From Escherichia phage fDHCT2, in sequence record OR427838.1: a DNA stretch of 64,000 nucleotides. One strand, 5' to 3'. Positions 5,921-57,041 of this stretch are shown piece after piece (the stretch's first letter is position 1; each line of letters starts with the position of its first letter). The notes beneath the pieces were generated by a model. It saw nothing but the letters and a program-made list of their open reading frames with translations, did no database searches and had not been told where the DNA came from. Position numbers and translations under genes: made by a program.

Positions 5921-5963
5921 AGTTGACAAGGCTATAGTATCACTACCATAGCCTGATGTAAAC
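5921..5963 (-). promoter_or_regulatory. Early-type promoter element (GTTTAC -35, extended -10, conserved downstream box)
   Basis: Member of repeated element family. Confidence 0.5.
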
Positions 5964-6191
5964 TTATTTTTGAATTAAGCCCATATAAAATTTAGCGTCT
6001 TCCGGGTGCATACCGTCACAATACTCATCAGCCATAAAGCGGGTAAGGTCTTCAAGAGGACCTTGGACTTCAATTTGCATACTACAGAATTGAGTATCTT
6101 TAATATGGGTCATAACTAAAGAAGGATAACGATTACGGATAACTTCGTAAGTGTATTCAAAATCAACGATATCAATATTAACCTTAGCCAT
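5964..6191 (-). CDS. Hypothetical small protein (start refined to ATG 6191, GAGGA SD)
   Basis: Track ORF 5964..6209; SD position supports internal Met. Confidence 0.45.
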
Positions 6192-6210
6192 TTTATTTTC
6201 CTCACTCATT

Positions 6211-6253
6211 AGTTGATAGATCTATAGTATCACGTTTAAAGGCGTTATAAACA
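6211..6253 (-). promoter_or_regulatory. Early-type promoter element (GTTTAT -35 variant)
   Basis: GTTTAT-N17-TACTAT plus conserved downstream box. Confidence 0.5.
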
Positions 6254-6514
6254 TTTATTTTGAATTTTATCAAGCCACTTACCAAGTTTAATCATTTCTT
6301 TAGTAGCTTTTTCCATACTTCTGAATTTAACCAGTAAAGGTTGTGCATCAACACCCATAACTAAAGTGGTTACAAGACTATGTTCACCTACAAGCCATAA
6401 TGAATAAGTTTGGATATCGAGCCCGTAATTTCGGTCTTTATGAACTCGTACGCCCATAACTTCAAACTGTTCGCTGGCTTTTTCTACGGCATCCAGGAAA
6501 TCATCTTTAGTCAT
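6245..6514 (-). CDS. Hypothetical small protein (ATG 6514 immediately follows stop of upstream gene)
   Basis: Track ORF 6245..6526 starts at TTG; ATG 4 codons in. Confidence 0.45.
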   Translation of the reverse strand: MTKDDFLDAVEKASEQFEVMGVRVHKDRNYGLDIQTYSLWLVGEHSLVTTLVMGVDAQPLLVKFRSMEKATKEMIKLGKWLDKIQNKCL

Positions 6515-6515
6515 G

Positions 6516-6878
6516 TTAAATTCCAAAGGTAGCTTTAATCAAGGCAACAACTTCCGCCGCATTTTTATGATTGACTTGTACATGAATGGTTTGGGTATCT
6601 ATTACAGGGGTATCATCTACTTCTATGAAGTGTTTGAATTCCCATTCAGCGAGTTCAAAATATTCATCAGCATTATCTAGGCTATCTAAGATAGTACCGT
6701 CTTTCATTTCAACTTTTTCAACAAAATAATCACCGTCGATATAACACATATCCAGGACTTTAAAGGAACCACCGTGTTGTTCCATCAGTTTGACCATACG
6801 TGAGTTATCGTCAGGACTACCCTCAATGAATTTTCTTTTAGAAGAAGGGTCTAATGCGTAAGTTTTACCAGTTTCCAT
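6516..6878 (-). CDS. Hypothetical protein
   Basis: 120-aa ORF; GAGGAAAT SD before ATG; downstream of early promoter element at 6894-6937. Confidence 0.5.
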   Translation of the reverse strand: METGKTYALDPSSKRKFIEGSPDDNSRMVKLMEQHGGSFKVLDMCYIDGDYFVEKVEMKDGTILDSLDNADEYFELAEWEFKHFIEVDDTPVIDTQTIHVQVNHKNAAEVVALIKATFGI

Positions 6879-6893
6879 TTTTATTTCCTCATG

Positions 6894-6937
6894 TAGTTGA
6901 TAAGTCTATAGTATCATGTTTAAAGGCATTGTAAACC
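6894..6937 (-). promoter_or_regulatory. Early-type promoter element
   Basis: Minus-strand GTTTAC-N17-TGA-TACTAT-AGACTTATCAACTA then SD and ATG. Confidence 0.55.
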
Positions 6938-6947
6938 ATTAAATGCC

Positions 6948-6972
6948 AAAAAGGGAAGACCGAAGTCTTCCC
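6948..6972 (-). terminator. Rho-independent terminator downstream of gene 32
   Basis: GGGAAGAC-UUCG-GUCUUCCC hairpin followed by U run on minus strand. Confidence 0.6.
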
Positions 6973-6988
6973 ATTATAAATCAATAAC

Positions 6989-7894
6989 TTATAGACCAGC
7001 TAACAAATCGTCCAGACCGTCGTCATCAGAAGGACTTACTGACGGCTCAGGAGTAGTGGAACGAGCAGGTGTAGACGGTTTGGAATCATACGCATCAAGG
7101 TCTGCACTGAATGCGTCCAGGTCATCACCAATCTTATCAGCGGCTGCAGAAGCTTTAGCGGCAGCACCACCAAGAGCAGCTGTACCAACAACTTTCTTAA
7201 ACTTGGCTTCGTTAGTTTCGAATGATTTGAAATCGAGCAGTTTAGAAAGGTCGTGCATTTCTTCCATCAATTTAGCTTGGTAAGCTTCGTCATTGATGTT
7301 AGGAATTTCAGACTGACCCATGAATTTGGAATCGTCGTAGTTTTTGAAGTCGCCAACTTTCTTAGATTTCAGTACGAAGTTCGCACCATCAAATGGACAT
7401 GTTACGTCAACCGGCACTTCACCAATATCAGTATCAACTTCAACCATCTGGTTGATTTTATCCATAATTTTCTGACCGAAACGGAATTTAAACACTTTAC
7501 CTTCGTTAGCAGGCACTGCACTATCCTTAATAACAAGGATGTTAGCCCAGAAGGAAGTTTTACGTTTCATCAGTTTGTATTCGGCATTATTAGTATTATA
7601 CGTATCGTTCTGGTTCATGTATTTACATACAGGACATGAATCGAAATCACCGTGTGTAGACGTACAGTTTTCAATGTACCATTGACCATTTTTCTTGAAG
7701 CCGTGGTTAACGAGCTTAATGAATGGAGATGGATTTTCTTCGTTTTTCGAAGGTAGGAAACGAATTACCGCAGTACCAACACCGTTGTCATCTTTCAATT
7801 TCCATTCAGCTTTATCATCGGAAGAGAAAGAAGAACCACCTTTCATTGCAGACAGTTGAGCAGCCAGTTGAGCAGGGTCACGACGTTTAAACAT
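6989..7894 (-). CDS. 32: Single-stranded DNA-binding protein gp32
   Basis: 301 aa as T4 gp32; blocks [20 protein letters not shown], acidic C-terminal tail. Confidence 0.95.
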
Positions 7895-7958
7895 ATTATT
7901 TACCTTAGCAGATTTATCAGTTGTATTTTATTGACAGTTTTTAACAGATTGAGTTAGT

Positions 7959-7983
7959 ATATTAACACAGTTGATTTGAAGCA
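7959..7983 (-). promoter_or_regulatory. Candidate MotA-dependent middle promoter for gene 32
   Basis: AATGCTTCA (MotA-box-like) then 12 nt then TAATAT on minus strand. Confidence 0.4.
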
Positions 7984-8637
7984 TTAAAACTTGCAAGATT
8001 TGATAGTTTCAATGAACAATTTACGAGCTTCTAAATTATCGATTATAAGAATTTTCTTATAAGCATTTAATTTAGTCGAATACTTAGACCACACTAAATC
8101 GTTGGTCTGTTCATCATGTTTATTTATTATATCCATAAATGAATCAAGCAAAATAAACGTTTCGAACGAAATAACATTCGATTGAAGGAGCTTAAAAATA
8201 TAGCTCGAGTTAACTTTTTTATTATACTCAAAAATTTCAGAAAGCGCTTGAACTTCCACTTTCTTACTAAAATAATAAATGTTTTTGATATCATCCTCAA
8301 AAACTTGTTTTATTCTTTTAAGTCTACCGATATATTCTCGGTAAAAGACTAAGGCGTCAGCATCACTGATGTCGCCAATCCATGCGTCTTGGTTAGCCAC
8401 CAAGTTACTCATGAAGATAAGAGCAAGCTCTTTCAAAGTGTATTTATCACTCAATTTCTCGAAGAAATATTTGTCACGACGTTTTTGGTAAGCCGTATCA
8501 GAGATTCGCATGACCCAGTTATATTTTATAACGTCGTATTTGGCGTTGAAGTGATGTTTGAGCATTAAGTATAGTGAATATACGCTCTTACCATTCACCA
8601 TACGATTATTGTTTGGTGGCATGCGAATCTTAATCAT
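7984..8637 (-). CDS. 59: Helicase loader gp59
   Basis: 217 aa; near-colinear with my memory of T4 gp59 (YDVIKYNW, ALIFMSNLVANQDAWIGDISDADALVFYREYIGRL). Confidence 0.9.
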   Translation of the reverse strand: MIKIRMPPNNNRMVNGKSVYSLYLMLKHHFNAKYDVIKYNWVMRISDTAYQKRRDKYFFEKLSDKYTLKELALIFMSNLVANQDAWIGDISDADALVFYREYIGRLKRIKQVFEDDIKNIYYFSKKVEVQALSEIFEYNKKVNSSYIFKLLQSNVISFETFILLDSFMDIINKHDEQTNDLVWSKYSTKLNAYKKILIIDNLEARKLFIETIKSCKF

Positions 8638-8936
8638 AACAAGAAATCCAAGGTATTAGTTTTTTGCGTTCGTGCCATTGAAGGACGAAGCAAGTTATCA
8701 TCAATGGCTTCGTTCATAATTTTATCAATAATTCCTGCAGGCAAATAACGAGCAAAGTTACCTTCAGGGATGCTGTTCTCTTCCAACCATGCGGTAGCCG
8801 CTTCGAGGTAACTACAACCTTCAGCCTCAACAAAGGCCTCAATATCAAGGCCATTCTGTTGTTTATTTACCAATACATGGACAGGTTCAGAAGCGGTATT
8901 AACCGCTCCATCAAAATCATTCAAAGATTGTGTCAT
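8634..8936 (-). CDS. 33: Late transcription co-activator gp33
   Basis: 100 aa; position between 59 and dsbA as in T4. Confidence 0.8.
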   Translation of the reverse strand: MTQSLNDFDGAVNTASEPVHVLVNKQQNGLDIEAFVEAEGCSYLEAATAWLEENSIPEGNFARYLPAGIIDKIMNEAIDDNLLRPSMARTQKTNTLDFLL

Positions 8937-9186
8937 ACAGTTCTACCACTTCAGTTTTTTCGTCTTCGAAACGTTCACGAGTGCCTTTATGATACAGTGA
9001 GAACAGCTGGTTAAACATTTTACCGTCGACACCAAGTTCAGTCTTAGCACGGTCTTTGATATCTTTAATTTCATCGCCATAGGCTTCCATTTTTAATTTA
9101 GTATCGGAAGCAGACTTAATCAGTTGTGCCAATGTGTTACCATGTTCTTCTTGATTGAATTCAACTTTCACTTTTTCTTTAGCCAT
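8917..9186 (-). CDS. dsbA: dsDNA-binding protein DsbA
   Basis: Start refined to ATG 9186 (MAKEKVKV...); synteny with T4 dsbA upstream of rnh. Confidence 0.75.
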   Translation of the reverse strand: MAKEKVKVEFNQEEHGNTLAQLIKSASDTKLKMEAYGDEIKDIKDRAKTELGVDGKMFNQLFSLYHKGTRERFEDEKTEVVELYDTIFE

Positions 9187-9196
9187 TATATTCACC

Positions 9197-10144: not shown

Positions 10145-10175
10145 ATGAACCTCTGTCCAAGTAGTTGAGAGGTTC

Positions 10176-10204
10176 ATTATATCATGACCCTAGAAGAAGT
10201 AAAC
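10176..10204 (-). promoter_or_regulatory. Sigma-70-type promoter for rnh
   Basis: GTTTAC-N17-TATAAT on minus strand. Confidence 0.55.
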
Positions 10205-10211
10205 ACTTTGC

Positions 10212-10219
10212 TATAAATA
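10212..10219 (+). promoter_or_regulatory. Late promoter TATAAATA for gene 34
   Basis: Exact TATAAATA about 30 nt upstream of gene 34 ATG. Confidence 0.6.
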
Positions 10220-10251
10220 GTTCTATACCCTGAAAACGAAAAGGAAATAAA

Positions 10252-21687: not shown

Positions 21688-21727
21688 AATATTCTCTTCA
21701 ATTCAGTACGACATCATCTGATAGGGC

Positions 21728-21767
21728 TATACTAACATATCCTTAGGGATTGTAAACATGTTCTTCG
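21728..21767 (-). promoter_or_regulatory. Early-type promoter element upstream of asiA
   Basis: GTTTAC-N17-TAGTAT-AGCCCTATCAG. Confidence 0.5.
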
Positions 21768-23740: not shown

Positions 23741-23763
23741 TTTAATCTCCGATAACCATTTAT

Positions 23764-23803
23764 TTGATAGGTCTATAGTATCATGTTTAAAGCAGAAGTA
23801 AAC
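23764..23803 (-). promoter_or_regulatory. Early-type promoter element upstream of motA
   Basis: GTTTAC-N17-TGA-TACTAT-AGACCTATCAAAT; spacer contains TGCTTTA. Confidence 0.55.
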
Positions 23804-23822: not shown

Positions 23823-23846
23823 AAAAAAGGAACCCGAAGGTTCCTT
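23823..23846 (-). terminator. Rho-independent terminator downstream of gene 52
   Basis: GGAACC-UUCG-GGUUCC hairpin plus U6 on minus strand. Confidence 0.6.
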
Positions 23847-26161: not shown

Positions 26162-26238
26162 ATCAATTTCCTCAGTAGATTAATGTTTTGTTATCCAGTC
26201 AACGAGAACCATTATAACACGATTCTCGAGGTTGTAAA

Positions 26239-26583
26239 CTATTTTTGTAGCTGTTCTAAAATAAATCCGCTCGTATAAAAGGAAGCATTATAAACCTTAT
26301 TCAGTGGGTGCAAAGCACGTCCGTATGTATCACGCAATTCTTTGATAACATTTTCATAGCTCACATAGTAAGCACTACGATAGTCCGGGTCCATGCTCAT
26401 ACGGAATTTGATGAACCGATAAAAGCCTGTTTCCGGATCTTGAACGAAAACGAAATCCGCGCTTGCCATAGTTTTTGGATTTACGCCTGGAATCATACTT
26501 TGATTGAATGATACCGTTGCCTCCTGAAGGCTGAGTTGTTTAAAGAACATAACTTTAGAGTTACCAAAAAATACTTTAGACAT
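26239..26583 (-). CDS. Hypothetical protein (start refined to ATG 26583 with AAGGAAA SD)
   Basis: Track ORF 26239..26607. Confidence 0.5.
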   Translation of the reverse strand: MSKVFFGNSKVMFFKQLSLQEATVSFNQSMIPGVNPKTMASADFVFVQDPETGFYRFIKFRMSMDPDYRSAYYVSYENVIKELRDTYGRALHPLNKVYNASFYTSGFILEQLQK

Positions 26584-26927: not shown

Positions 26928-26941
26928 AATCATCTCCATTA

Positions 26942-26982
26942 GTTGATAGGTCTATAATATCATGTCTAATGGAGATGTAAAC
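26942..26982 (-). promoter_or_regulatory. Early-type promoter element
   Basis: GTTTAC-N17-TGA-TATTAT-AGACCTATCAACTA. Confidence 0.5.
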
Positions 26983-32466: not shown

Positions 32467-32803
32467 TTTTAACTACCTCATGTTGAACATATTCTCTGGT
32501 AGAACCGAGTTCAGCCAGAATTCTTCTCATAGAACCCATTGTACTTTTGTGCTCTCTGTGGCGATACAATATCTCCAGAACCTTTTCCTGGACAACAGGA
32601 GAGAGCGCCTGGTTATCTTTAATCTTTAAGGCAATAGATTTTACAGCCTTAAGATATTCTAGCCCCTTACCGCTTGTAATCACTACTCCTTCATCTTTAC
32701 AGTTACGAATAGCGGTTTCCATAAAGGATAAAGCCAGGTTGTCAGTGTTCACTATACTGTTATCTTGCATAATCATATTCTCACCTCTAGATAATCCTAT
32801 CAC
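32453..32803 (-). CDS. Hypothetical protein
   Basis: 116-aa ORF. Confidence 0.45.
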   Translation of the reverse strand: MIGLSRGENMIMQDNSIVNTDNLALSFMETAIRNCKDEGVVITSGKGLEYLKAVKSIALKIKDNQALSPVVQEKVLEILYRHREHKSTMGSMRRILAELGSTREYVQHEVVKNDKL

Positions 32804-32829
32804 AGTTTTGTTATGTTGTAAACCCCGAA

Positions 32830-33045: not shown

Positions 33046-34863
33046 TTACGACATCCAGGCCTTACGGAGTTGAGGGTCGTTCCCGAGGAGCATTTCGAAC
33101 TGTTCTTTCCAATCTTCAGGCAATTGAACTACATCAAATTTAGGGTCTTGAATCATTCGACGGTATTCAGCCTTCTCAAGAGAACCTAGTCCTTTGATAT
33201 AACGAATAGAATGTTTTGGTAGAGAGTCCTTAGCTTTGGTATAACTAGGGACATCATAGAACCATTCTTGTTCTTTACCAATCTGAGCAATAATTACAGG
33301 AGTTTTACAGAATCGTACTCGGCCTTGTTCGAATAATTCAGGCCATTGACTAAAGAAGGCTAACAATGACGGATAAATCGAGCCTGTACCATCCACATCG
33401 GCATCAGTCATAATAGCGATATTACGATAGTTAGTTTTATCTGCAGGTTCGCCAATAACCAGTCCAGTGATTGCACAGATATCAAACAATTCTTTGTTCT
33501 TCATGATATCAACTGCAGGCATACCCCAGGTATTCATAACCTTACCACGTAATGGATAACCGCCTTGAAGGTCTTTATTACGTACTTCAATGAAAGGACC
33601 CATTGCTGAATCACCTTCAGTCAAGAACAGAGTTGTATCGGCATCTTTACCATACATATTGGCTTTAATATGCTTATGGACTTTAGCTTTCAAAGCTTTC
33701 TTAGCGGCTTTTGTTTCTGCTGCTTTTTCGGCTGCTAATTTACGTGCTAAAGCAGCTTCGACGATAGGCATAATCAACCCATCGACCTTAAGAATCATCG
33801 ATGCAATTTTCTTAGCATCAATTTGGATATGGCTACGAATCTCGCCAAACGGGGAGGTCAAACGCTCTTTAGTCTGGGAATCAAAACGCATATTACTCAT
33901 ATCACGAATGAACATTACCATCGTAAGGCATTCTTTAACACGAGCCTTAGTTACTTCAATTCCACGATATTTCTTTTTAATACCAGGCAGAAGGTGCTCA
34001 CAAATGTCATCGAATACACATTCAACGTGGTGTCCACCATTCTTGGTATGGATATTATTTACATACGTCAGTTGACGGAACCCATCCGGAGAAGGAGTAA
34101 ATGCCATCGAAACATTATCAGTTTCTTGGATTACAAAGTCATCACCAAATTGCTTAGCATACTTTTTAAAGTTGCCATCTACTTTTTTACCATTAAAAGT
34201 AAATTGGATATCAGGATAAATTACAGCTAGGGTTTTAAGACGATCTAAAGTAATATCCAGATAAATTTGGGTCAAACTATTTTCTTCGAAATGGTTAAAG
34301 TCTGGAGTGAATATAACCGAAGTGCCTTTATCTTTGGATTTCTTAGTAGTCCAACCTTTGTTTTCCATTCCGTTAGAACAGTTAACAGTAATCTCATTCT
34401 CGCCATCAGAGGTGATGCCTGTGAACAAAACAGAGAAGATATTAGTTAAACTACTACCGACACCATTCATGCCGCCTGTCTTACGCTCAGCGTCATCTCC
34501 AAAGTTACCACCAGCCTTTGGAATAGTCCATGCAGCTACAGGACCCGGAATTTGTTCCCTGTTTTGGTCAGTAACCATTGCTTGTGGAATACCACGGCCA
34601 TTATCGGAAACTGAAACCTGATTATTCTTAATTCGGACATCAATTTTGTTTGCGAATTTAAAATTAGTACGAATAGCTTCATCGACAGAGTTATCAATGA
34701 TTTCGTCAATTAATTTAACTAGCCCTGGAACATAGTTCACCTGGGTAAAATTACCAAACAGGAATCGACCGTGAGCTTCATTAGCACTTGAGCCAATATA
34801 CATCCCACTACGTTTTTTGATATGTTCAATGTCGGACAGTACTTTAATTTCATTCTTAATCAT
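33046..34863 (-). CDS. 39: DNA topoisomerase II large subunit (GyrB-like), continuous 605-aa form
   Basis: ATPase N-terminus; TOPRIM block DADVDG; the C-terminal region that T4 encodes as separate gene 60 is fused here. Confidence 0.9.
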   Translation of the reverse strand: MIKNEIKVLSDIEHIKKRSGMYIGSSANEAHGRFLFGNFTQVNYVPGLVKLIDEIIDNSVDEAIRTNFKFANKIDVRIKNNQVSVSDNGRGIPQAMVTDQNREQIPGPVAAWTIPKAGGNFGDDAERKTGGMNGVGSSLTNIFSVLFTGITSDGENEITVNCSNGMENKGWTTKKSKDKGTSVIFTPDFNHFEENSLTQIYLDITLDRLKTLAVIYPDIQFTFNGKKVDGNFKKYAKQFGDDFVIQETDNVSMAFTPSPDGFRQLTYVNNIHTKNGGHHVECVFDDICEHLLPGIKKKYRGIEVTKARVKECLTMVMFIRDMSNMRFDSQTKERLTSPFGEIRSHIQIDAKKIASMILKVDGLIMPIVEAALARKLAAEKAAETKAAKKALKAKVHKHIKANMYGKDADTTLFLTEGDSAMGPFIEVRNKDLQGGYPLRGKVMNTWGMPAVDIMKNKELFDICAITGLVIGEPADKTNYRNIAIMTDADVDGTGSIYPSLLAFFSQWPELFEQGRVRFCKTPVIIAQIGKEQEWFYDVPSYTKAKDSLPKHSIRYIKGLGSLEKAEYRRMIQDPKFDVVQLPEDWKEQFEMLLGNDPQLRKAWMS

Positions 34864-35972: not shown

Positions 35973-35990
35973 TTTATTTTCCTCTCGTTT

Positions 35991-36032
35991 GTTGATAGGG
36001 CAATAATATCACTACCCTACCATAGTGTATAC
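35991..36032 (-). promoter_or_regulatory. Early-type promoter element (variant -35 GTATAC)
   Basis: Conserved downstream box TGATATTATTGCCCTATCAAC. Confidence 0.45.
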
Positions 36033-36613: not shown

Positions 36614-36655
36614 AATTTTTCTCTCTTGGTTAAAGGTTTATAATCCATGAGAGCC

Positions 36656-36684
36656 ATTATAACATGGCTCTCGATAAAGTAAAC
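36656..36684 (-). promoter_or_regulatory. Sigma-70 promoter GTTTAC-N17-TGT-TATAAT with palindrome around -10
   Basis: Inverted repeat gagagccat / atggctctc flanks the -10. Confidence 0.5.
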
Positions 36685-37744: not shown

Positions 37745-37759
37745 TTTGTTCTCCTCATG

Positions 37760-37800
37760 TTGATAGGGTAGATAATATCATGTCATGAGGAGAAGTAAAC
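37760..37800 (-). promoter_or_regulatory. Early-type promoter element
   Basis: GTTTAC-N17-TGA-TATTAT-CTACCCTATCAAC. Confidence 0.5.
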
Positions 37801-41086: not shown

Positions 41087-41113
41087 GATATTTTTCTCAT
41101 CTTACGGACGATT

Positions 41114-41155
41114 AGTTGATATGTCTATAGTATCACGGTACTCGATAAAGTAAAC
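41114..41155 (-). promoter_or_regulatory. Early-type promoter element
   Basis: GTTTAC-N17-TGA-TACTAT-AGACATATCAACTA. Confidence 0.5.
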
Positions 41156-41224: not shown

Positions 41225-41839
41225 TCAGTAAGAAAGAACGGAAAGATTCCAAATGGTGTAATTATTCCATTTAGGATTTCTCTCAATAGAGTCTACGCGC
41301 AGCGTAGTTCCCGCAGGGAACATCATCTCATCTTCATCATTGATTAATTGTAAGTTTGCTACACGGGTAGATTCAGGAAATGCGCCTGGGAACTCTTCAG
41401 GGGGCGCAGCACATAACATTTTAAAGATTTCTTCCTGATAATTGTATACAAATGGTGCATCATTAATACAAAAGATATTAAATGTTCCATAGAAGTTATA
41501 AGATGCAAAATTCCTTGCCACGTTGAAGTCTTTAGAGAAGCTCATTACTCGGTCGAATTCAATTACGGCACCTACACACATTGTGGACTCTAGATACTTC
41601 ATAGTCTTTTTAGATATGCCGCGATAGAGCTTATCAGGCACTACAGAAGTCAGGTTCTTACGGATAATTTTGTTCAGGGTTTCTTGGATGCAATCCGGTT
41701 TATTTTCCATACACTGCCAGAGGGTACTCTGTTCTAAATCAGAATACACCTCATCAATTTCTATCTGAGTATTCTCACGGAAATCATCGCATTTAGCGTT
41801 GTTGATAAATTCTGCTAATTTATGGCTTGGATATAACAT
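41225..41839 (-). CDS. modA: ADP-ribosyltransferase (ModA-like)
   Basis: 204 aa; R-S-E triad context (LYRGI, SFSKDF, EDE); paralog of next gene. Confidence 0.65.
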   Translation of the reverse strand: MLYPSHKLAEFINNAKCDDFRENTQIEIDEVYSDLEQSTLWQCMENKPDCIQETLNKIIRKNLTSVVPDKLYRGISKKTMKYLESTMCVGAVIEFDRVMSFSKDFNVARNFASYNFYGTFNIFCINDAPFVYNYQEEIFKMLCAAPPEEFPGAFPESTRVANLQLINDEDEMMFPAGTTLRVDSIERNPKWNNYTIWNLSVLSY

Positions 41840-41893
41840 ATTATTCTCCTCAGTCGATAGAAAGATAGTACCACAAGCTTCCTTGCCTGTAAA

Positions 41894-42463
41894 CTAAAAA
41901 TCCAACATTTTTAAATGAATTGTTTTATACTCGATTTCATACGGGTCTCTTTTGACGGTTTCGATTGCAACAATCTCAAATCGCGATTGGCTGGAGACCA
42001 TGAACTCACATTCAGTTTCAACCATATCATAGAGGTCAATACGAGTTTCATCAATTTCAAGTTCATCTACATTCCCTGCAAGAACAAGGTCGATAGCATG
42101 ATTGTAGTAGTCGAAAATGAACGGTGCATTCCTGAGACTTAAAATGGTTTTGGTTCCATATTCCCATGCCCCTGCGAACTGACGAGCCTGAGAGTATTGT
42201 GTACTAAAAGAAGTAACGCGACCAGGAGACCATTGACAACCTACTGAAAGGAGCTCTAATTGCTCAAGTTCTCTGGTGGTAATCCCGCGATAAAGCTCTA
42301 CAGGAACGGCCGAAGTAACATGCTTACGAACCAGTTTATCGAGGTCGTAATGAAAGTTAGGGTCCTTTTTAGCATCCAGACATTTCTCTAACAAGGCTTG
42401 TTCAGATTTTGAAAATTTGGAATTGATTCGGTCTTGATAAAGACATTTTCGTTCGATATTCAT
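41894..42463 (-). CDS. modB: ADP-ribosyltransferase (ModB-like)
   Basis: 189 aa; LYRGI, SFSTQY, ECE motifs. Confidence 0.65.
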   Translation of the reverse strand: MNIERKCLYQDRINSKFSKSEQALLEKCLDAKKDPNFHYDLDKLVRKHVTSAVPVELYRGITTRELEQLELLSVGCQWSPGRVTSFSTQYSQARQFAGAWEYGTKTILSLRNAPFIFDYYNHAIDLVLAGNVDELEIDETRIDLYDMVETECEFMVSSQSRFEIVAIETVKRDPYEIEYKTIHLKMLDF

Positions 42464-42487
42464 ATGACCTCCAGTGATTTAGAGGTC

Positions 42488-42516
42488 ATTATAACATGAA
42501 GGGAGGAGGTGTAAAA
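42488..42516 (-). promoter_or_regulatory. Sigma-70 promoter TTTTAC-N17-TGT-TATAAT upstream of modB-like gene
   Basis: Followed by GACCTC...GAGGTC inverted repeat spanning the SD. Confidence 0.5.
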
Positions 42517-43884: not shown

Positions 43885-44147
43885 AGGAAACCTCTCACAA
43901 ATTTTACATCGCCATTGTCTAAGCGGATTTCTGCATTAAATTCTACAGAATTATCTTCATACATCATAAAAGAATGCGTAATAACATCGTCATGATACCC
44001 TAACCCGTATTTAAGCGAAACTTCTTGAGCAATCAAAGCACCTACTGCATTATTAGGTTTAATCCAACGATTTAACATAGTGTTCTCCTCTATAAGATAA
44101 GACCATCTTAACACGGCCTTCCTAGAAAGTAAACCCTTAAAAACCAA
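43881..44147 (-). CDS. Hypothetical protein
   Basis: 88-aa ORF. Confidence 0.45.
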   Translation of the reverse strand: MVFKGLLSRKAVLRWSYLIEENTMLNRWIKPNNAVGALIAQEVSLKYGLGYHDDVITHSFMMYEDNSVEFNAEIRLDNGDVKFVRGFL

Positions 44148-44168
44148 AAAAGGAACCCGAAGGTTCCT
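44145..44168 (-). terminator. Rho-independent terminator downstream of soc
   Basis: GGAACC-UUCG-GGUUCC hairpin plus U6 (same hairpin sequence as at 23823-23846). Confidence 0.6.
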
Positions 44169-44173
44169 TATAA

Positions 44174-47621: not shown

Positions 47622-47636
47622 TTCAATCTCCTCGTT

Positions 47637-47679
47637 AGTTGATAGGTCTATAGTATCACCACCATAGACCGTTGTAAAC
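47637..47679 (-). promoter_or_regulatory. Early-type promoter element
   Basis: GTTTAC-N18-TGA-TACTAT-AGACCTATCAACTAACGAGGAG. Confidence 0.5.
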
Positions 47680-48061: not shown

Positions 48062-48265
48062 TTAGATTTCCTCAATGCGGGCATCATATTCAAAAACTTT
48101 ATTGTCATTAACAAAGGCTTTCACCAGTGCATTATTCACTTCTGCATACTGCACTGTAACCCATTCAATCATTTTTTGGTCACTAACATCCAGCGCAGTT
48201 TCTTTGGTAAACATATTACCGTTTTCAAACCAACCAATAAATACTACGATCTCTAATTTAAACAT
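48062..48265 (-). CDS. Hypothetical small protein, tandem paralog A
   Basis: 67 aa; ends YDARIEEI. Confidence 0.5.
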   Translation of the reverse strand: MFKLEIVVFIGWFENGNMFTKETALDVSDQKMIEWVTVQYAEVNNALVKAFVNDNKVFEYDARIEEI

Positions 48266-48460
48266 TTAGATTTCCTCAATACGTGCATCATGTTCATAAA
48301 CTTCTACGTCATCAACATAGGCCTTAACCAAAATACTATTGACTTCGGCGAATTGGGTAGTCACCCACACAATATCATTTTCACGTACTGAAGCTTCTTT
48401 GGTAGTGGTATCACCGTTATTAAAACAGCATACAAATTTTACCTTAACCAATTTAGACAT
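48266..48460 (-). CDS. Hypothetical small protein, tandem paralog B
   Basis: 64 aa; ends HDARIEEI. Confidence 0.5.
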   Translation of the reverse strand: MSKLVKVKFVCCFNNGDTTTKEASVRENDIVWVTTQFAEVNSILVKAYVDDVEVYEHDARIEEI

Positions 48461-48778: not shown

Positions 48779-48790
48779 TTTGTTCTCCAA

Positions 48791-48831
48791 GTTGATAGGT
48801 CCATAGTATCATGCCTACAGGAGAAGTAAAC
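48791..48831 (-). promoter_or_regulatory. Early-type promoter element
   Basis: GTTTAC-N17-TGA-TACTAT-GGACCTATCAAC. Confidence 0.5.
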
Positions 48832-48840
48832 CATTAAAAC

Positions 48841-48863
48841 AAAAAAGGAGCCGAAGCTCCTTA
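48841..48863 (-). terminator. Rho-independent terminator at 3-prime end of gene 41
   Basis: AAGGAGC-UUCG-GCUCCUU hairpin plus U6. Confidence 0.6.
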
Positions 48864-51788: not shown

Positions 51789-51840
51789 TATATTTTTCCA
51801 TAGGCATCATTATATTTTACTCACGTTTTAAGATAGGGTA

Positions 51841-51869
51841 ATTATATCACTTCACATTTACAGCGTTAA
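51841..51869 (-). promoter_or_regulatory. Candidate promoter for uvsX (extended -10 TGATATAAT)
   Basis: TTAACG-N17-TATAAT; downstream box resembles the early-element box (TTACCCTATC). Confidence 0.35.
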
Positions 51870-52759
51870 AGGACCACGTCCTCATAACTTGGCATTTCGT
51901 GCTCAGAATGGATATGGGCGCCGAAATAAATGAATTCAGCTAGACCAGGATGGAATACTAAACCTGGGTTCTCATGATAAATGATATGAGGTCTTGATTT
52001 CAGAATCTGATAATATTCAACCTTACTTGGTTTGAATTTAATAATCTCTACATCAGGACGATAGTCTTCACGCTTAAATGAATCATTCGGGTCGGTGATA
52101 TAAAGACGAGCACCTTCAGCCGCAGCTTGGTCTACAACTCTTTCGAATTGATAACACTTATCCGAAATACGGAATGGGTGGAAAATACCATCAATTTTAA
52201 TAGGCGCTAGACCTTCAGAGTAACGCTCAATTACTGCCGGATTAATTACCTTTTGGTCTACAAAAATCTTATCAGAGGACGCACCTCGTGACACCAGGAC
52301 GTCTTTCTGACATTGGTTCAAGACTGTAGTATAAATCGAACGTTCAACTGAAGACACGTCGGTATCAATAAACTCATCGATGTAATAACGAGGAACTTCA
52401 GGGTCCATTGTAATGTTAAAGTTGAATTGTACAGTCTGAGCACCATCATAACCAGTGATATCGGTTACTAATCCCGAGCAGTCATAGTATTCGATTAACG
52501 AATCAACGACAAACTCATTTTCGGACCAAAAATGTTTACGGGTCTCATAAGCATTTTCTTTATACCAAAGCGGCACGAAATTCAGTTCAGGAAATAATTC
52601 AATACATTCTTTGATATCGCTCGAATTTCTAGGATAAGCCAGATAATCACCTGGGCAAGCACGGTTTAAATGGAGTTGGAAATTACCGTCCTTAAGGACG
52701 GCATATTCACCTGTTTCGTAACTACGCATACTGAAAATAGGAACGATAAACAAACTCAT
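51866..52759 (-). CDS. Uncharacterised protein at the locus where T4 encodes beta-glucosyltransferase
   Basis: 297 aa; no motif I can assign; ATGA overlap with gene 42 homolog. Confidence 0.5.
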   Translation of the reverse strand: MSLFIVPIFSMRSYETGEYAVLKDGNFQLHLNRACPGDYLAYPRNSSDIKECIELFPELNFVPLWYKENAYETRKHFWSENEFVVDSLIEYYDCSGLVTDITGYDGAQTVQFNFNITMDPEVPRYYIDEFIDTDVSSVERSIYTTVLNQCQKDVLVSRGASSDKIFVDQKVINPAVIERYSEGLAPIKIDGIFHPFRISDKCYQFERVVDQAAAEGARLYITDPNDSFKREDYRPDVEIIKFKPSKVEYYQILKSRPHIIYHENPGLVFHPGLAEFIYFGAHIHSEHEMPSYEDVVL

Positions 52760-53987: not shown

Positions 53988-54367
53988 GGATGATAGGCCT
54001 TATAACTATCAAGAGTTCCTTCACGAACCAATTCTTTAAAGTGGTCTGGACGGATTGCTCGGTCATCGATGATAAAAGTATAACTCGGCTTGTGTGTAAG
54101 CAAATTGTGATATTTCAATCCAATTTTTTCAAGGTTCTTAACCAATGCAGGAACTACTTCAACCAAGATTCGACCTGGGCCACATGAAGTCATGCCACGG
54201 GCAGTGAATAATGTAATCTCGTACCCTTCATCATAAAGCTTATTAATCATGGACACCATTTCGGTGTCCGGTTTAAAGTTCTCATAATCACGGTCATGGT
54301 TCCAAATCGTGATTGTGTTATCGATATCAAAACATAAATGTGGTTTATTTTCTACTCGATGCGACAT
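53984..54367 (-). CDS. HAD-superfamily phosphatase
   Basis: HAD motif I FDIDNT near N-terminus; start refined to ATG 54367 (TAATG overlap); alternative start 54382. Confidence 0.55.
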   Translation of the reverse strand: MSHRVENKPHLCFDIDNTITIWNHDRDYENFKPDTEMVSMINKLYDEGYEITLFTARGMTSCGPGRILVEVVPALVKNLEKIGLKYHNLLTHKPSYTFIIDDRAIRPDHFKELVREGTLDSYKAYHP

Positions 54368-56040
54368 TAAATTTTCTTCCATTGTTTGTGGAGTTCAGTA
54401 GAACCTGTAGGTTTATATTTTACACCAGTTTCCTGGTCAAGCAAAACCCACTTATCAGGACAACGAGTAATAATTTGAGCCGTGATAGGGTCACGAACTT
54501 CATCGACAAATTCACCAGTAATAAGCTTACGCTTACGAGGATGCCGCTTCAGCAGCACACTCAGTTGGTACAAACCGTTATAATAAGCACCCAGAGCTTT
54601 CAGAGGGTTATTCTTAAAGTAACCTGCCAGCGCCATCCAAATAACAGCAATCCAGAGCTTGTGCTTAAATGTGCACATAGGAATATCGTCTAAAGGCATA
54701 ACCTTTTCAATATCAACGAATACACGAGTTCCATTACGAGTTAATCCACCCCATAGAGGGTCTGAGTTAAATTTGTCATAGCCATCGATAGAATAAAGCA
54801 CCTTAGCTTCATCATAAATCGCAGGGCCTTTAGAACTATTACCGAAATAACCACGTGGGTCGATGATTTTAATATCACCTTCGTCCGACAGCATAATATT
54901 ACTGTAGTGCGGGTCACCATGAATAAGTTGGTACGGTTCTTTATGTTCAGACAGAATTTCTAATGCATGGCGGAGAAGTTTTTCAGGGTCGCCTACTTTG
55001 AAATCGTTGACATGGGTAATGCCCTGTGGAGCAAAGCCTTCAATCAATCCGGCAATAGAAGCATTACGAATAAGGACCTTGTCCAATACTTCTTTCTTAA
55101 CATCGGAATACCATTGTTCATCGGACGGATTATCAATAGTTCCACCAAATGAACGTAATGCACTAATGACCTTATAAACCATGAGGACTTTAGTTTCTTT
55201 GGACATAAACCGGTAGGCATCTGCCATGGTCCGACCAAAGATACGTTCCATTTTAATGAATTCGCCTGGAGAAAAGTCTACAATGCTAGGAACGAATTCA
55301 GAATCAATAGAATTATACCAATTGATTTCTTTAGATTGAATTTCTTTACCTAAATCGTTAGTTGGTACTTTAATAGCCAGATTCTCAGTGAACTCTAATT
55401 TATTAAATTCACGGTTAATTTCAGAATCTTCATGGGCCTTAGCCAGTTTCAATTTGTCACCGACATCAACCACAAAGTCCAGCTTACGTTCAGTCAAATG
55501 GACCATCGAATCCAGGTTGTCTGCAAGGTCTTCGCCATAATTAGAACGGTCGAAACCTGTCCAATTAGCCACCTGATACAAACCAACCACACCACCGCCA
55601 GTACCAATTTCACGCAAGTACGGTTCTTCAAATGTAAAACGACAGTCGGTCCCATAGGTATAACAGTAGTCGTTATCCCACTCAACTTTATGACCTTCAG
55701 GAATAATATCACACCAGTTAAACAAGACATTATGCCCAATGATATCTTCAGCAATGCAATCGATAGCATGAGCTGAACCATTAGCAACATCAACGTTACG
55801 AATAGTGAATTTAGGCTTATCACCAGTAATCATGTTAATGGATTTGATATAGCCTTTAACGAGGTCGTTAAATTTGCTGTGAATAACCAGAATAATTTCA
55901 TCTGATTGGTTACTATACAAATCATACAAATGCTTTAATACCGTATGTTGTTTGTAGTTAACCAATACCTTCGGGATTTCGTTAGTAATTGGATACAACC
56001 GTGAGCCAAGACCCGCGCCTAAAATAACAACCTTTTTCAT
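54367..56040 (-). CDS. Bifunctional sugar-1-phosphate nucleotidyltransferase (N-terminal) / sugar kinase (C-terminal)
   Basis: Start refined to ATG 56040 (GAGGAA SD); N-terminus ILGAGLGSRLYPITNEIPKVLV; C-terminal HGDPHYSNIML...IKIIDPRG Brenner-type kinase motif. Confidence 0.6.
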   Translation of the reverse strand: MKKVVILGAGLGSRLYPITNEIPKVLVNYKQHTVLKHLYDLYSNQSDEIILVIHSKFNDLVKGYIKSINMITGDKPKFTIRNVDVANGSAHAIDCIAEDIIGHNVLFNWCDIIPEGHKVEWDNDYCYTYGTDCRFTFEEPYLREIGTGGGVVGLYQVANWTGFDRSNYGEDLADNLDSMVHLTERKLDFVVDVGDKLKLAKAHEDSEINREFNKLEFTENLAIKVPTNDLGKEIQSKEINWYNSIDSEFVPSIVDFSPGEFIKMERIFGRTMADAYRFMSKETKVLMVYKVISALRSFGGTIDNPSDEQWYSDVKKEVLDKVLIRNASIAGLIEGFAPQGITHVNDFKVGDPEKLLRHALEILSEHKEPYQLIHGDPHYSNIMLSDEGDIKIIDPRGYFGNSSKGPAIYDEAKVLYSIDGYDKFNSDPLWGGLTRNGTRVFVDIEKVMPLDDIPMCTFKHKLWIAVIWMALAGYFKNNPLKALGAYYNGLYQLSVLLKRHPRKRKLITGEFVDEVRDPITAQIITRCPDKWVLLDQETGVKYKPTGSTELHKQWKKI

Positions 56041-56068
56041 TATCTGTTCCTCAAGTGAATGTAGGTAC

Positions 56069-56100
56069 ATTATACACTATTTTTAATAAATTGGTATTGC
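56069..56100 (-). promoter_or_regulatory. Candidate extended -10 promoter upstream of nucleotidyltransferase-kinase gene
   Basis: TGTATAAT on minus strand; weak -35. Confidence 0.3.
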
Positions 56101-56601
56101 TTAAATCTTATCTTTACCGATTTCAATACACTGTTCTATTGCCGCCGGTACTTTGGTCTTGAGCTTATCGATTTGTTTCTTATAATCACGAGCTTTACCG
56201 AAGCTCTCGGTTTCGAGCATTTCGTAATAACGAGCCTCGTGGATGGAAATCTGTAGATTGATATGGTTTACGCACATCGCATACAGTTTCTGCTTTTTGT
56301 ACAAATCATCTTGACGCTTCATTTCTGCCTGGTGTTTGGCTAGTACCGCTTCACGCTTAGACTCTTGTTCACGTTGGAATTCGATTTCCCTTTGAGCATA
56401 TTTTGCACAGTTATTACCGCATTGATTATTAGCTCGGGTATACACAAGTCCGGAACCAGCACGGAATTTCATTTCGCCATCGAATTGTTTCTGTTCAGCT
56501 GCGATACGAGCTTTACCAACTTCATCAGCCGAAACTGCATCGCCATATTGGACCGCGCAACCTGATAGGAGCATACTCATTGCGATAATTAACTTTTTCA
56601 T
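56101..56601 (-). CDS. Putative lipoprotein
   Basis: 166 aa; signal peptide with lipobox LLSGC; GAGGA SD. Confidence 0.55.
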   Translation of the reverse strand: MKKLIIAMSMLLSGCAVQYGDAVSADEVGKARIAAEQKQFDGEMKFRAGSGLVYTRANNQCGNNCAKYAQREIEFQREQESKREAVLAKHQAEMKRQDDLYKKQKLYAMCVNHINLQISIHEARYYEMLETESFGKARDYKKQIDKLKTKVPAAIEQCIEIGKDKI

Positions 56602-56608
56602 AATATCC

Positions 56609-56746
56609 TCAATTAAAACAGTTATACTTAATTTGTGCTATAAGAATAATCCATCCAATGATGAGTGTCGGAATCATTGGTGGAATTGCCACTGCCCAAT
56701 AAACGGTAAAGGCAGCCATTATAAGAAATAAAATAATTATCTTCAT
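56609..56746 (-). CDS. Putative 45-aa membrane peptide (not in ORF track)
   Basis: ATGA overlap with imm-like gene stop; two hydrophobic segments. Confidence 0.3.
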   Translation of the reverse strand: MKIIILFLIMAAFTVYWAVAIPPMIPTLIIGWIILIAQIKYNCFN

Positions 56747-56979
56747 TGTTTAACGATAATGATTTGTGCGTTTGATTTACGTTCAGCGACGATAGCCCAG
56801 ATTAAAGCCACTACCCAACCAATCATCGTCCACCCTAACAGGAGATTAAGGAAGAAAATTCCTACATTACTACGAGTGCCTCGCAGAAGGGCTAAAATCC
56901 ATGGTAAAAAGTAACCGATGAACATAATAACCAGAGAACCAAATCCTAAAACACCAGCACTAACGATTAAAGCTTCCAT
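56743..56979 (-). CDS. imm: Superinfection immunity protein, Imm-like
   Basis: 78 aa, two TM; LRGTRSN...LLGWTMIGWVVALIWA; T4 imm position upstream of 43. Confidence 0.55.
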   Translation of the reverse strand: MEALIVSAGVLGFGSLVIMFIGYFLPWILALLRGTRSNVGIFFLNLLLGWTMIGWVVALIWAIVAERKSNAQIIIVKQ

Positions 56980-56995
56980 TGTAATTTCCTCATGT

Positions 56996-57039
56996 AGTTG
57001 ATAGGAAGGATACTACCACGTTCCTTGTGGTATGTAAAC
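56996..57039 (-). promoter_or_regulatory. Early-type promoter element upstream of imm-like gene
   Basis: GTTTAC-N18-TAGTAT-CCTTCCTATCAACTACATGAGGAA. Confidence 0.5.
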
Positions 57040-57041
57040 AC

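Follow-up and report, generated by a model that had tools for sequence, protein, structure and literature searches.

Putative early promoters with a start-site box in Escherichia phage fDHCT2 and their likeness to those of phage T4

Promoter-like elements on the minus strand

The window analyzed here, the 64,000 nucleotides of sequence record OR427838.1 from Escherichia phage fDHCT2, is ~92-93% identical to the Dhakavirus phages IME08, E33, dhabil, and CLB_P2. A recurrent element is found on its minus strand (Table 1), made up of an A/T-rich upstream region, a GTTTAC -35, a 17-18 nt spacer ending in TGn, a TAnTAT -10 and, in many copies, a conserved stretch past the -10, referred to below as the box. 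The region from -58 to -37 is A/T-rich at most promoter sites. Downstream lie homologues of T4 early genes; in T4 itself, at least 12 of these genes have a promoter of this type at the equivalent position.

Reading of all 14 coordinates given in the initial annotation confirmed that the family is real, as the architecture of sigma-70-type promoters is seen at 12 strong sites (5921, 6211, 6894, 21728, 23764, 26942, 35991, 37760, 41114, 47637, 48791, and 56996) and, in weaker form, at 10176, all of which are followed directly by an SD and an ATG as had been described. The spacing of the consensus proposed there does not hold, as the TGA has to be counted inside the 17/18 nt and the real layout is GTTTAC-N14/15-TGA-TACTAT. 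Thirteen of the 14 sites retain their membership. The site at 51841, listed as a weak variant, is probably not a member of the family, as it is without GTTTAC and its motifs have the spacing of a MotA-dependent middle promoter; in T4, uvsX has a middle promoter.

With up to 3 mismatches allowed, the 18-mer TACTATAGACCTATCAAC was matched 9 times, exclusively on the minus strand, where shuffled sequence would give 0.12 matches; GTTTAC-N15-20-TACTATAGACC gave 2 against 0 expected. A scan blind to the box (GTTTAC with at most 1 mismatch, N17-18, TAnnnT) returned 21 promoter-like sites on the minus strand, which is that of the early genes, and a single one on the plus strand. Absent from the initial list were one boxed member, with a -10 ending at 41865 (minus), and five box-less early promoters of this type (26211, 32794, 36656, 42488, and 44105).

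Table 1. Predicted promoters and associated hairpins in the window.
Feature	Coordinates	Strand	Sequence and remarks
frd.1 homologue early promoter, -35 to +8	5920..5963	-	GTTTAC N18 (TGA) TACTAT AGCCTTGTCAACTA; spacer AGGCTAT pairs with ATAGCCT
frd.3 homologue early promoter	6210..6252	-	GTTTAT N17 TACTAT AGATCTATCAACTA; orthologous to T4 Pe at 146846
frd.2-like ORF early promoter	6894..6936	-	TACTAT AGACTTATCAACTA
Intrinsic-terminator hairpin	6953..6972	-	GGGAAGAC-TTCG-GTCTTCCC and T run; 16 nt upstream of -35 of 6908 promoter
rnh early promoter, weak-box variant	10162..10204	-	TGA TATAAT GAACCTCTCAACTA; orthologous to T4 site 150734
asiA early promoter	21715..21757	-	TGT TAGTAT AGCCCTATCAGATG
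motA early promoter	23761..23803	-	TGA TACTAT AGACCTATCAAATA; orthologous to T4 site 163644
Terminator hairpin	23827..23846	-	AAGGAACC-TTCG-GGTTCCTT and T run; upstream of motA promoter
ndd early promoter, box-less	26197..26239	-	TATAAT GGTTCTCGTTGAC; inverted repeat CGAGAA/TTCTCG on both sides of -10; different repeat, GGGGTCA/TGACCCC, at this place in phage CJ20
ndd.4 homologue early promoter	26940..26982	-	TGA TATTAT AGACCTATCAACTA; spacer ATCTCCATTAG complementary to SD-containing CTAATGGAGAT
Early promoter without box, before small ORF upstream of rIIA.1	32780..32823	-	TGA TAGGAT TATCTAGAGG; preceded by hairpin GGGCC-GCAA-GGCCC
cef early promoter	35989..36032	-	GTATAC N18 TATTAT TGCCCTATCAACAA; spacer-box pairing, -15 kcal/mol
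motB early promoter, box-less	36642..36684	-	TATAAT GGCTCTCATGG; 9-bp inverted repeat GAGAGCCAT/ATGGCTCTC on both sides of -10; GGGACC/GGTCCC at orthologous site in T4 and CJ20
motB.2 early promoter	37757..37800	-	TGA TATTAT CTACCCTATCAAC; box shifted 1 nt; spacer TTCTCCTCATG complementary to CATGAGGAGAA (SD)
srd early promoter	41113..41155	-	TGA TACTAT AGACATATCAACTA
Boxed early promoter before ModA/ModB-like gene	41851..41894	-	TGG TACTAT CTTTCTATCGACTG
Early promoter without box, before second ModB-like gene	42474..42516	-	TTTTAC N17 TATAAT GACCTCTAAATC; spacer ACCTCC pairs with SD GGAGGT
mrh.2 early promoter, half box only	44091..44134	-	TAAGAT GGTCTTATCTTATA; leader same as T4 site 15259
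Terminator hairpin	44150..44169	-	AAGGAACC-TTCG-GGTTCCTT and T run; upstream of mrh.2 promoter
sp (spackle) early promoter, perfect consensus box	47636..47679	-	TGA TACTAT AGACCTATCAACTA; spacer GGTCTAT pairs with ATAGACC
Early promoter before ORF upstream of dmd homologues	48789..48831	-	TGA TACTAT GGACCTATCAACTT
Terminator hairpin	48845..48862	-	AAGGAGC-TTCG-GCTCCTT and T run; upstream of 48803 promoter
Promoter before uvsX, weak variant of initial annotation	51827..51870	-	no GTTTAC; GCTGTA-N12-TATAAT, then TACCCTATCTTAAAAC
imm early promoter	56996..57039	-	TGG TAGTAT CCTTCCTATCAACTA

The start-site box and its counterpart in T4

The reported extension of conservation past the -10 into the transcribed region is real, as measured by information content over positions -6 to +8. 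If transcription starts at the A located 7 nt after the -10 (the A of CCT-A-TCAAC), the box AGACCTATCAACTA would consist of the discriminator (-6 to -1) together with the first 8 transcribed bases (AUCAACUA). This placement of +1 is taken from a single data point in T4, where a note in the sequence record names an early promoter 'Pe133295', and position 133295 lies exactly 7 nt past the -10 found by scanning (last base 133302). Exact copies of the octamer CTATCAAC number 7 on the minus strand of the window, each 4-5 nt past a -10, and 3 on the plus strand, against a chance expectation of ~1.25. The octamer is linked to a promoter in 7 of 7 minus-strand copies in the window and in 9 of 12 copies in T4, and apart from promoters the box is not above chance level by exact-octamer count in the window. 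Furthermore, the box is associated with TAnTAT -10s in both the window and T4 (Fisher p=0.0095 and 0.020) and is absent from 15 T4 middle promoters and 6 MotA-box sites of the window. Comparison of orthologues gave 0.22 differences per site in the box, 0.06 in the -35, 0.35 in the spacer, and 0.32 in the leader; the box is thus conserved only moderately above the neutral-looking spacer and leader. Substitutions are tolerated, and the position of the box shifts by 1 nt at 37772 and, in E33, at 41127.

The assignment of these elements as early promoters is upheld by their -35/TGn/-10 geometry, their A/T-rich upstream regions, their location on the early-gene strand, and their positions, which are orthologous to those of T4 early promoters at frd.1, frd.3, rnh, asiA, motA, ndd.4, motB.2, srd, sp, and imm. 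In Yersinia phage fPS-90, the corresponding sites, including the one orthologous to 5920..5963, bear the annotation 'predicted early promoter'. The elements share with T4 early promoters (Pe) the GTTTAC -35, the spacer length, the TGn, the TAnTAT/TATAAT -10, the A/T-rich upstream region, the strand, the downstream genes, and the start-site box CTATCAAC(TA) in the same register. In T4, TGG TACTAT ACAACTATCAACTA occurs at 167057, 163644, 70667, 53914, and 27051, and at 55355 with the end ...CTG; TACCCTATCAAC occurs at 166778 and 73543, and an exact AGACCTATCAACTA at 65385. Information over -6 to +8 amounts to 8.1 bits in the window (n=19) and 6.2 bits in T4 (n=38), with the common consensus A.A.CTATCAACTA. 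Because the T4 box is comparable by this measure, the downstream box is in essence no more conserved than that of T4 early promoters, the outcome that the initial annotation had named as speaking against its proposal of something beyond an ordinary promoter. The early-promoter repeats are a real feature and not a new one, since T4 itself carries the promoter consensus whose start-site part this downstream stretch represents.

Differences from T4 are also apparent. The dominant subtype in Dhakavirus genomes, including the window, is TGA...AGAC-CTATCAAC, whereas that of T4 is TGG...ACAA-CTATCAAC; the boxed share at a threshold of at least 6 of 8 matches is larger in the window (12/19, or ~2/3, vs 14/38, or ~1/3); and the core promoter has been exchanged at some loci, e.g. 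srd, sp, and motA. T4 early promoters have been described as having 'additional regions of consensus' beyond the UP, -35, TGn, and -10 elements (PMC2988021), and a preference for C at -3 to -1 has been described for RB69, RB49, and 44RR (PMC1524935).

Stem-loops and cassette behavior of the promoter-leader units

The promoter-leader units of the window resemble the promoter-early stem-loop (PeSL) cassettes that mediate shuffling and that are known from RB49/phi1, T4/PST, and KVP40/nt-1 (Arbiol et al. 2010, PMC2839356; Comeau et al. 2014, PMC4122927). Both are composites of a stop codon with an A/T-rich stretch, an early promoter, a stem-loop, an SD, and an ATG, both have stem-loops upstream of or overlapping the -10, and both mark places at which gene content or gene order varies among relatives. 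In contrast to PeSL cassettes, which have a TTGACA -35 and polyG/polyC stems, the units of the window have the T4-type GTTTAC and stems that are short and varied in sequence. A terminator-like hairpin lies upstream of only 5 of the 19 promoters, and a strong hairpin extends across the -10 or onto the SD at 8 of the 19. The stem-loops at 23827..23846 and 44150..44169 are identical.

Homology between relatives often breaks at promoters, as in the described PeSL cassettes; at motA, sp, ndd.4, and the modB-like gene, it begins within the promoter. At srd, the window and T4 have the leader in common and differ in the core promoter, and the order of frd.2 and frd.3 is reversed relative to T4. Subfamilies with a shared spacer are present, with GCCTTTAAACATGA at 6224, 6908, and 23775 and GGTCTATGGTGGTGA-like spacers at 5934 and 47650. 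Similarity also extends to non-orthologous loci: the 48803 cassette and the T4 denV promoter are near-identical, and the imm promoter (57010) has a spacer, ATACCACAAGGAACG, that is almost that of T4 Pe 167057. Matches to the cassette occur in 933 T4-like phage records, a Dhakavirus genome having them at as many as 15-18 places, and outside Dhakavirus the box is found in T4, in Gaprivervirus, and in one Acinetobacter T4-like phage belonging to another subfamily.

The spacers of ~40% of the promoters are complementary to the start site or the SD of the same promoter (p<=1e-4), and some compensatory changes are seen. A strong hairpin with the promoter spacer as its 5' arm and a 3' arm over the SD is predicted at 5 promoters of the window and 7 of T4; transcripts started at such a promoter would therefore lack the 5' arm. 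In the T4 genes e, soc, 49, and I-TevI, the RBS is sequestered in read-through transcripts and is freed when a promoter inside the hairpin starts the transcript. Early transcripts of the window that start inside the hairpin would similarly lack the 5' arm of the SD-covering hairpin; however, the internal promoter would be an early one here, and it is a late or middle one in these T4 genes. The related case of mobE is listed in PMC3014915.

Possible roles of the box

Strong early phage promoters used by the host sigma-70 polymerase include T5 PN25, T7 A1, and lambda PL, in which sequence past the -10 adds strength; T7 A1 and lambda PL transcripts also begin with AUC. The T4-type box differs in being a fixed octamer common to many promoters of one genome. 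T4 Pe have themselves been likened to T7 PA1 and lambda PL (PMC2988021). The elements of the window very probably serve a T4-like phage of the genus Dhakavirus as ordinary early promoters, with the box as their start-site module. No function is stated for the start-site consensus in the literature examined on T4-type early promoters.

A possible, though rather unlikely, account is that the box itself serves no function and that the cassettes are young copies homogenized by recombination (PeSL-type shuffling, gene conversion), with the start-site bases traveling with the -10. Copying would fit the spacers shared within the subfamilies at 6224/6908/23775 and 5934/47650, which are not expected under selection, as well as the dominant discriminator particular to each lineage, the homology breakpoints at promoters, and the tie of the box to one -10 variant. 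However, T4, Dhakavirus, Gaprivervirus, and the Acinetobacter phage share one and the same core, CTATCAAC, even though spacers, discriminators, and leaders differ, and the box diverges less between orthologues than spacer or leader do. Pure hitch-hiking would not keep the octamer fixed over such distances unless cassettes were exchanged very frequently between genera.

The initial annotation had suggested a conserved mRNA leader or a regulator or nuclease site; a separate element of either kind is not borne out by a box that is never above chance off promoters, occurs in ~2/3 of the promoters, and is moderately conserved between orthologues. It is improbable that the box acts in RNA, with AUCAACUA as a 5' end that protects early mRNAs (e.g. 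from 5'-end-dependent decay) or aids ribosome loading on very short leaders. The 8 conserved transcribed bases do lie at the extreme 5' end of leaders of ~20-30 nt and are confined to the early class, for which special decay rules involving RegB have been described (PMC3014915), yet the untranscribed half (-6 to -1) is as conserved as the transcribed half, the octamer is never above chance in other leaders or away from the -10, no RNA structure or rRNA complementarity was found for the box, and many early genes are without it. Least credible, and very unlikely indeed, is a binding or cutting site for a phage-encoded factor, e.g. a nuclease or the factor that would switch early promoters off a few minutes into infection. 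Such a site would suit the overlap of the box with +1, where operators act, and its restriction to early promoters as opposed to middle ones; how early promoters are shut off is described as incompletely understood (PMC3014915). Early promoters are nevertheless described as shut off as a whole class (PMC3014915), whereas only ~2/3 of them here and ~1/3 in T4 carry the box; the box sequence is not palindromic and tolerates substitutions and 1-nt shifts, it recurs in an Acinetobacter phage whose set of early genes is very different, and no candidate protein was found.

The preferred reading is that host sigma-70 RNA polymerase would read the A/T-rich upstream region, the GTTTAC -35, the spacer ending in TGn, and the TAnTAT -10, and would start transcription within the box, which would be the start-site module of a widespread T4-type early-promoter subtype, TGn-TACTAT-NNNN-CTATCAAC-TA. 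The most likely role of the box is to tune the formation of the open complex, the choice of start site, and promoter escape, and it may also supply a short unstructured 5' end. To our knowledge, the box is unlike the discriminator and core-recognition sequences known to be optimal for E. coli RNA polymerase, and its biochemical role is for this reason putative. The conservation above that of ordinary promoters would be due to the copying and exchange of the promoter-leader unit as a cassette, which is partly shown; such recombination would act between loci and between phages, as with PeSL cassettes, and each lineage may have amplified a cassette subtype of its own.

Architecture and setting of the early promoters

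The reading best supported by the sequence is that the repeated elements of the fDHCT2 window are early promoters (Pe) read by the host sigma-70 polymerase. The 18-mer TACTATAGACCTATCAAC has nine matches at three or fewer mismatches, all on the minus strand, compared with 0.12 expected from dinucleotide-preserving shuffles, and a gapped pattern including GTTTAC has two matches versus zero expected. The repeat family described in the initial annotation is real, as inspection of its 14 coordinates found the claimed layout at each of the 12 strong sites and, with a weaker box, at 10176. The remaining coordinate, 51841, is probably not a family member; it does not contain GTTTAC and instead carries GCTGTA-N12-TATAAT before uvsX. 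The spacing originally proposed is slightly off, as the TGA counted outside the 17-18 nt spacer lies within it.

The promoter set was defined using a scan blind to the start-site box (GTTTAC with at most one mismatch, N17-18 and TAnnnT, requiring in addition either an exact -35 or TG ahead of the -10), which returned 21 sites on the minus strand and one on the plus strand. Nineteen sites combine GTTTAC (≤1 mismatch), N17-18 and TAnnnT with a downstream SD-ATG. All 19 lie on the minus strand, and the strand of every promoter site is that of the early genes. The scan added five promoters of the same build that lack the box, and one boxed member had been overlooked (see table). An extended -10 is universal, with TG at -15/-14 in 19/19 sites (frequency 1.00), and the UP-like region from -58 to -37 has an A+T content of 0.64-0.86 in 17 of the 19. 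In many cases the -35 directly abuts the stop codon of the gene upstream (e.g., window 5963-5966); at such sites the whole intergenic space is promoter plus leader, and the A-rich UP-like region falls in the coding end of the preceding gene. A generic TTGACA/TATAAT scan of the window found 43 sites with 43 expected, and this lack of enrichment makes it uninformative, since only the sites with TG and a T4-type -35 stand out.

The window is approximately 92-93% identical to the Dhakavirus phages IME08, E33, dhabil and CLB_P2. Based on tblastn, it is colinear with T4 from nrdA through gene 32, rnh, the tail-fibre genes 34-38, asiA, motA and 52, and on through rIIB/rIIA, 39, motB, dexA, dda, srd, modA/B, 56, 61, 41 and uvsX to gene 43 and the clamp genes. 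T4 promoters recovered by the same scan occupy places orthologous to those at window frd.1, frd.3, rnh, asiA, motA, ndd.4, motB, motB.2, srd, mrh.2 and sp, as well as modB (modB-like in the window) and imm.1 (imm in the window). The T4-type -35, the spacer, the TGn, the early-gene orientation and these shared places bear out the original reading of the elements as early promoters.

MotA boxes, (a/t)(a/t)TGCTT(t/c)A with the centre at -30, are absent from all boxed sites. Separate good MotA boxes (TGCTT) lie 12-13 nt before a -10 at six minus-strand sites and a further one at about 3572; these are probably middle promoters, and the start-site box is missing from all of them. The uvsX promoter has MotA-like spacing and a degenerate box, the sole site of the initial list so spaced, and in this it is similar to the MotA-dependent middle promoter PuvsX of T4. 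Downstream of it lies TACCCTATC, which is half of the early start-site box.

The two adjacent ModA/ModB-like ADP-ribosyltransferase genes are both closest to T4 modB, and each has one early promoter. The large subunit of topoisomerase II is encoded by one ORF of 605 aa, unlike in T4, where genes 39 and 60 share it, so the window lacks a split or bypass of the gene-60 type. Two tandem small ORFs both resemble T4 dmd, with 58% and 51% identity, suggestive of a duplication at this locus.

Features of the fDHCT2 window and of T4 (Pe positions are the last base of the -10; SD, 3' hairpin arm over the SD)
Feature	Position	Spacer pairing	Details
Pe, ndd	26211	26197-26239	box-less
Pe, ndd.4	26954	26940-26982	SD; ATCTCCATTAG/CTAATGGAGAT
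Pe, upstream of rIIA.1	32794		box-less; A+T of -58 to -37, 0.27
Pe		35989-36032	
Pe, motB	36656	36642-36684	box-less; pairing stops at start site; GAGAGCCAT/ATGGCTCTC
Pe, motB.2	37772	37757-37800	SD; TTCTCCTCATG/CATGAGGAGAA
Pe, first ModA/ModB-like gene	41865		boxed; overlooked initially
Pe, second ModB-like gene	42488	42474-42516	box-less; SD; A+T of -58 to -37, 0.55
Pe, mrh.2	44105	44091-44134	box-less; SD
Pe, upstream of dmd homologues	48803	48789-48831	SD
uvsX promoter	51827-51870		GCTGTA-N12-TATAAT
MotA-box sites, minus strand (ends)	53495, 34888, 30169, 8126, 7959, 4872		
Further MotA-box site, minus strand	about 3572		
Terminator upstream of motA Pe	23827-23846		AAGGAACC-TTCG-GGTTCCTT + T run
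Terminator upstream of mrh.2 Pe	44150-44169		identical stem-loop + T run
UUCG-loop terminators	6953-6972, 48845-48862		similar to the two preceding
ModA/ModB-like genes	41225-41839, 41894-42463		
Topoisomerase II large subunit	33046-34863		
dmd-like ORFs	48062-48265, 48266-48460		
T4 Pe	167057, 163644, 70667, 53914, 27051		TGG TACTAT ACAACTATCAACTA
T4 Pe	55355		as preceding, ending ...CTG
T4 Pe	166778, 73543		TACTAT TACCCTATCAAC
T4 Pe before denV	65385		exact AGACCTATCAACTA
T4 pairing examples		62768, 65385, 57961, 20583, 7186	

The start-site box in fDHCT2 and T4

The T4 record is without promoter features, and the T4 sites were therefore taken from the scan of the whole T4 genome rather than from annotation. 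A note in that record names 'Pe133295', a coordinate exactly 7 nt after the -10 found by the scan there. This offset, a single data point, places +1 at the A of CCT-A-TCAAC, so that the box consists of the discriminator (-6 to -1) and the first eight transcribed bases. The claim that conservation continues past the -10 holds, as the window sites carry 8.1 bits over -6 to +8 (n=19). The further claim of an element beyond T4 early promoters does not, since T4 has the same box in the same register with 6.2 bits (n=38), and the start-site consensus A.A.CTATCAACTA is common to both. With comparable information and the same consensus, the box is essentially no more conserved than in T4, the outcome that the initial annotation had itself named as counting against its proposal; the excess over T4 is slight and comes from a small number of sites. 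Presence of the box is associated with TAnTAT rather than TATAAT -10 elements in each phage (Fisher p=0.0095 in the window and 0.020 in T4).

The box is widely distributed. A 63-nt query over the cassette at 47650 (sp) found matches in 933 records of T4-like phages, and a single Dhakavirus genome can contain as many as 15-18 matching places. In the Tequatrovirus Yersinia phage fPS-90, the orthologous frd.3 and frd.1 sites are annotated 'predicted early promoter', and that annotation ends at the -10. The sequence ...CCCTATCAACTAC recurs at several of the orthologous positions in CJ20 (Gaprivervirus), and Acinetobacter phage Stupor, of another subfamily, has ATTTAC-N-TGATACTATAGTCCTATCAACTAA before a small gene. 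The review by Hinton describes T4 early promoters with 'additional regions of consensus' beyond the UP, -35, TGn and -10 elements (PMC2988021), Nolan et al. report that RB69, RB49 and 44RR prefer C at -3 to -1 (PMC1524935), and a DksA study found no informative discriminator motif among T4 early promoters. In the part of the T4 early-promoter literature covered, no function is assigned to the start-site consensus. The leader CAACTTGGAGAAC at about window 48780 contains TTGGAG, the preferred site of the IME08 terminase (TTGGA|G), for which no further consensus is reported within 100 nt (PMC3105952); no link between this site and the promoter box was found.

Several other explanations for the box were weighed. 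The exact octamer CTATCAAC is promoter-linked in 7/7 of its minus-strand occurrences in the window and 9/12 in T4, while its plus-strand counts are at chance level. Away from promoters it occurs only at chance level, ruling out an independent RNA or DNA motif. The box is also absent from 15 middle promoters of T4 (start sites as given in Hinton 2010, PMC2988021) and from the six MotA-box sites of the window, ruling out a general need of -10-dependent transcription in the phage. These results identify the box as a property of the early cassette, neither shared by all -10 promoters nor free-standing. A sigma-70 promoter-proximal pause element is likewise excluded by sequence reading, as TATCAA (-1 to +5) fails as such an element. 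A -10-like hexamer has A as its second base and T as its sixth, and every hexamer within CTATCAACTA is missing at least one of the two.

Two readings raised in the initial annotation are unlikely. Against an operator or nuclease site, many early promoters are box-less, and the box is non-palindromic and tolerates both substitutions and 1-nt shifts. Against a purely RNA-level role, such as that of a conserved mRNA leader, the untranscribed half of the box is conserved as much as the transcribed half. In the best supported interpretation, the box is the start-site module of a widespread T4-type promoter subtype.

Probable cassette exchange and spacer complementarity

The dominant subtype in Dhakavirus genomes is TGA...AGAC-CTATCAAC, and that in T4 is TGG...ACAA-CTATCAAC, where TACC and a single AGAC make up the minor types. 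Near-identical cassettes occur at non-orthologous loci; the spacer at 48803 (TTCTCCTGTAGGCATGA) resembles that of the T4 denV promoter (ATCTCCTGTAGGTATGA), and the spacer at 57010 (imm) resembles that of T4 167057. At srd, window and T4 have the leader GTCCGTAAGATG in common, whereas the core promoters differ. Homology to relatives starts within the promoter at motA (IME08 q52, CLB_P2 q24), sp (E33 and CJ20 q65), ndd.4 (q28) and the modB-like gene (q34). At these four loci the cassettes appear to sit where sequence has been inserted, lost or replaced between close relatives, as do the promoter-early stem-loop (PeSL) cassettes of RB49, phi1 and relatives. The order of frd.2 and frd.3 is reversed relative to T4 (5920-6936: frd.1, frd.3, extra ORF, frd.2-like, gene 32) and a promoter cassette flanks each small gene, an arrangement that looks like cassette-mediated shuffling. 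The lineage subtypes, moved cassettes and breakpoints observed here match the behaviour described for PeSLs (PMC2839356; PMC4122927). Comparison of orthologous haplotypes gives 0.06 differences per site for the -35, 0.16 for TGn plus -10 and 0.22 for the box, compared with 0.32 for the leader and 0.35 for the spacer; constraint on the box is moderate and weaker than that on the core elements.

Complementarity between spacer (-30 to -16) and downstream region (-6 to the ATG) is much greater within a promoter than between promoters. Mean duplex energies are -8.65 (own) versus -6.2 kcal/mol (cross) in the window (permutation p≤1e-4) and -9.35 versus -5.7 kcal/mol in T4 (p≤5e-5), making own-spacer complementarity statistically solid in both phages. 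Strong pairings (≤-10 kcal/mol) occur at 8/19 window and 14/38 T4 promoters. Approximately half of these extend to the SD, and the remainder go no further than the start site, so that the -10 falls in the loop. A geometry that would sequester the ribosome-binding site, with the 3' arm over the SD and the 5' arm upstream of the start, is found in five of the 19 (-10 to -17.9 kcal/mol). At ndd, motB and motB.2 the pairing persists among orthologues although its sequence differs, and at ndd.4 they show a compensatory A:T to G:C change. When spacers were paired with the orthologue's downstream region, the effect was weak overall (Wilcoxon p=0.04), the signal coming from ndd, motB and motB.2.

RB49 and phi1 PeSLs contain stem-loops between the -35 and -10 or over the -10, read as terminators or attenuators (PMC2839356). 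In the window, only 8/19 promoters have a strong hairpin (≤-10 kcal/mol) that spans the -10 or reaches the SD, and a terminator-like hairpin lies upstream of 5/19. Hairpins with an upstream terminator tend to be weaker (-6.5 kcal/mol versus -9.8 kcal/mol for those without), a difference in the predicted direction that is not significant (p=0.14).

It is conceivable, though rather doubtful, that the spacer of many T4-like early promoters doubles as the 5' arm of a hairpin whose 3' arm is the promoter's own box or SD. Read-through RNA from upstream would then fold the hairpin, leaving the gene untranslatable or differently processed, and RNA begun at the local promoter would be without the 5' arm and stay open. 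Each early gene would thereby be expressed mainly from its own promoter, and its place in one hairpin arm might partly explain why the box is kept. The geometry resembles that of the T4 genes e, soc, 49 and I-TevI, in which a hairpin is likewise combined with an internal promoter.

Significance for T4-type phages

The feature is an ordinary element of an already known kind. Conservation of the box probably reflects both the copying and exchange of whole cassettes and a modest contribution to initiation, escape or the 5' end. Two questions are raised, namely why one start-site octamer is kept from coliphages to an Acinetobacter phage in the early class only, and whether complementarity between the spacer and the start site or SD may gate translation of read-through transcripts; both are modest and leave the assignment to a known element type unaffected. 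The analysis yields what should be a precise promoter map, covering 19 early promoters with probable start sites along with several terminators, and the start-site box belongs in the T4-type early-promoter model when relatives are annotated.
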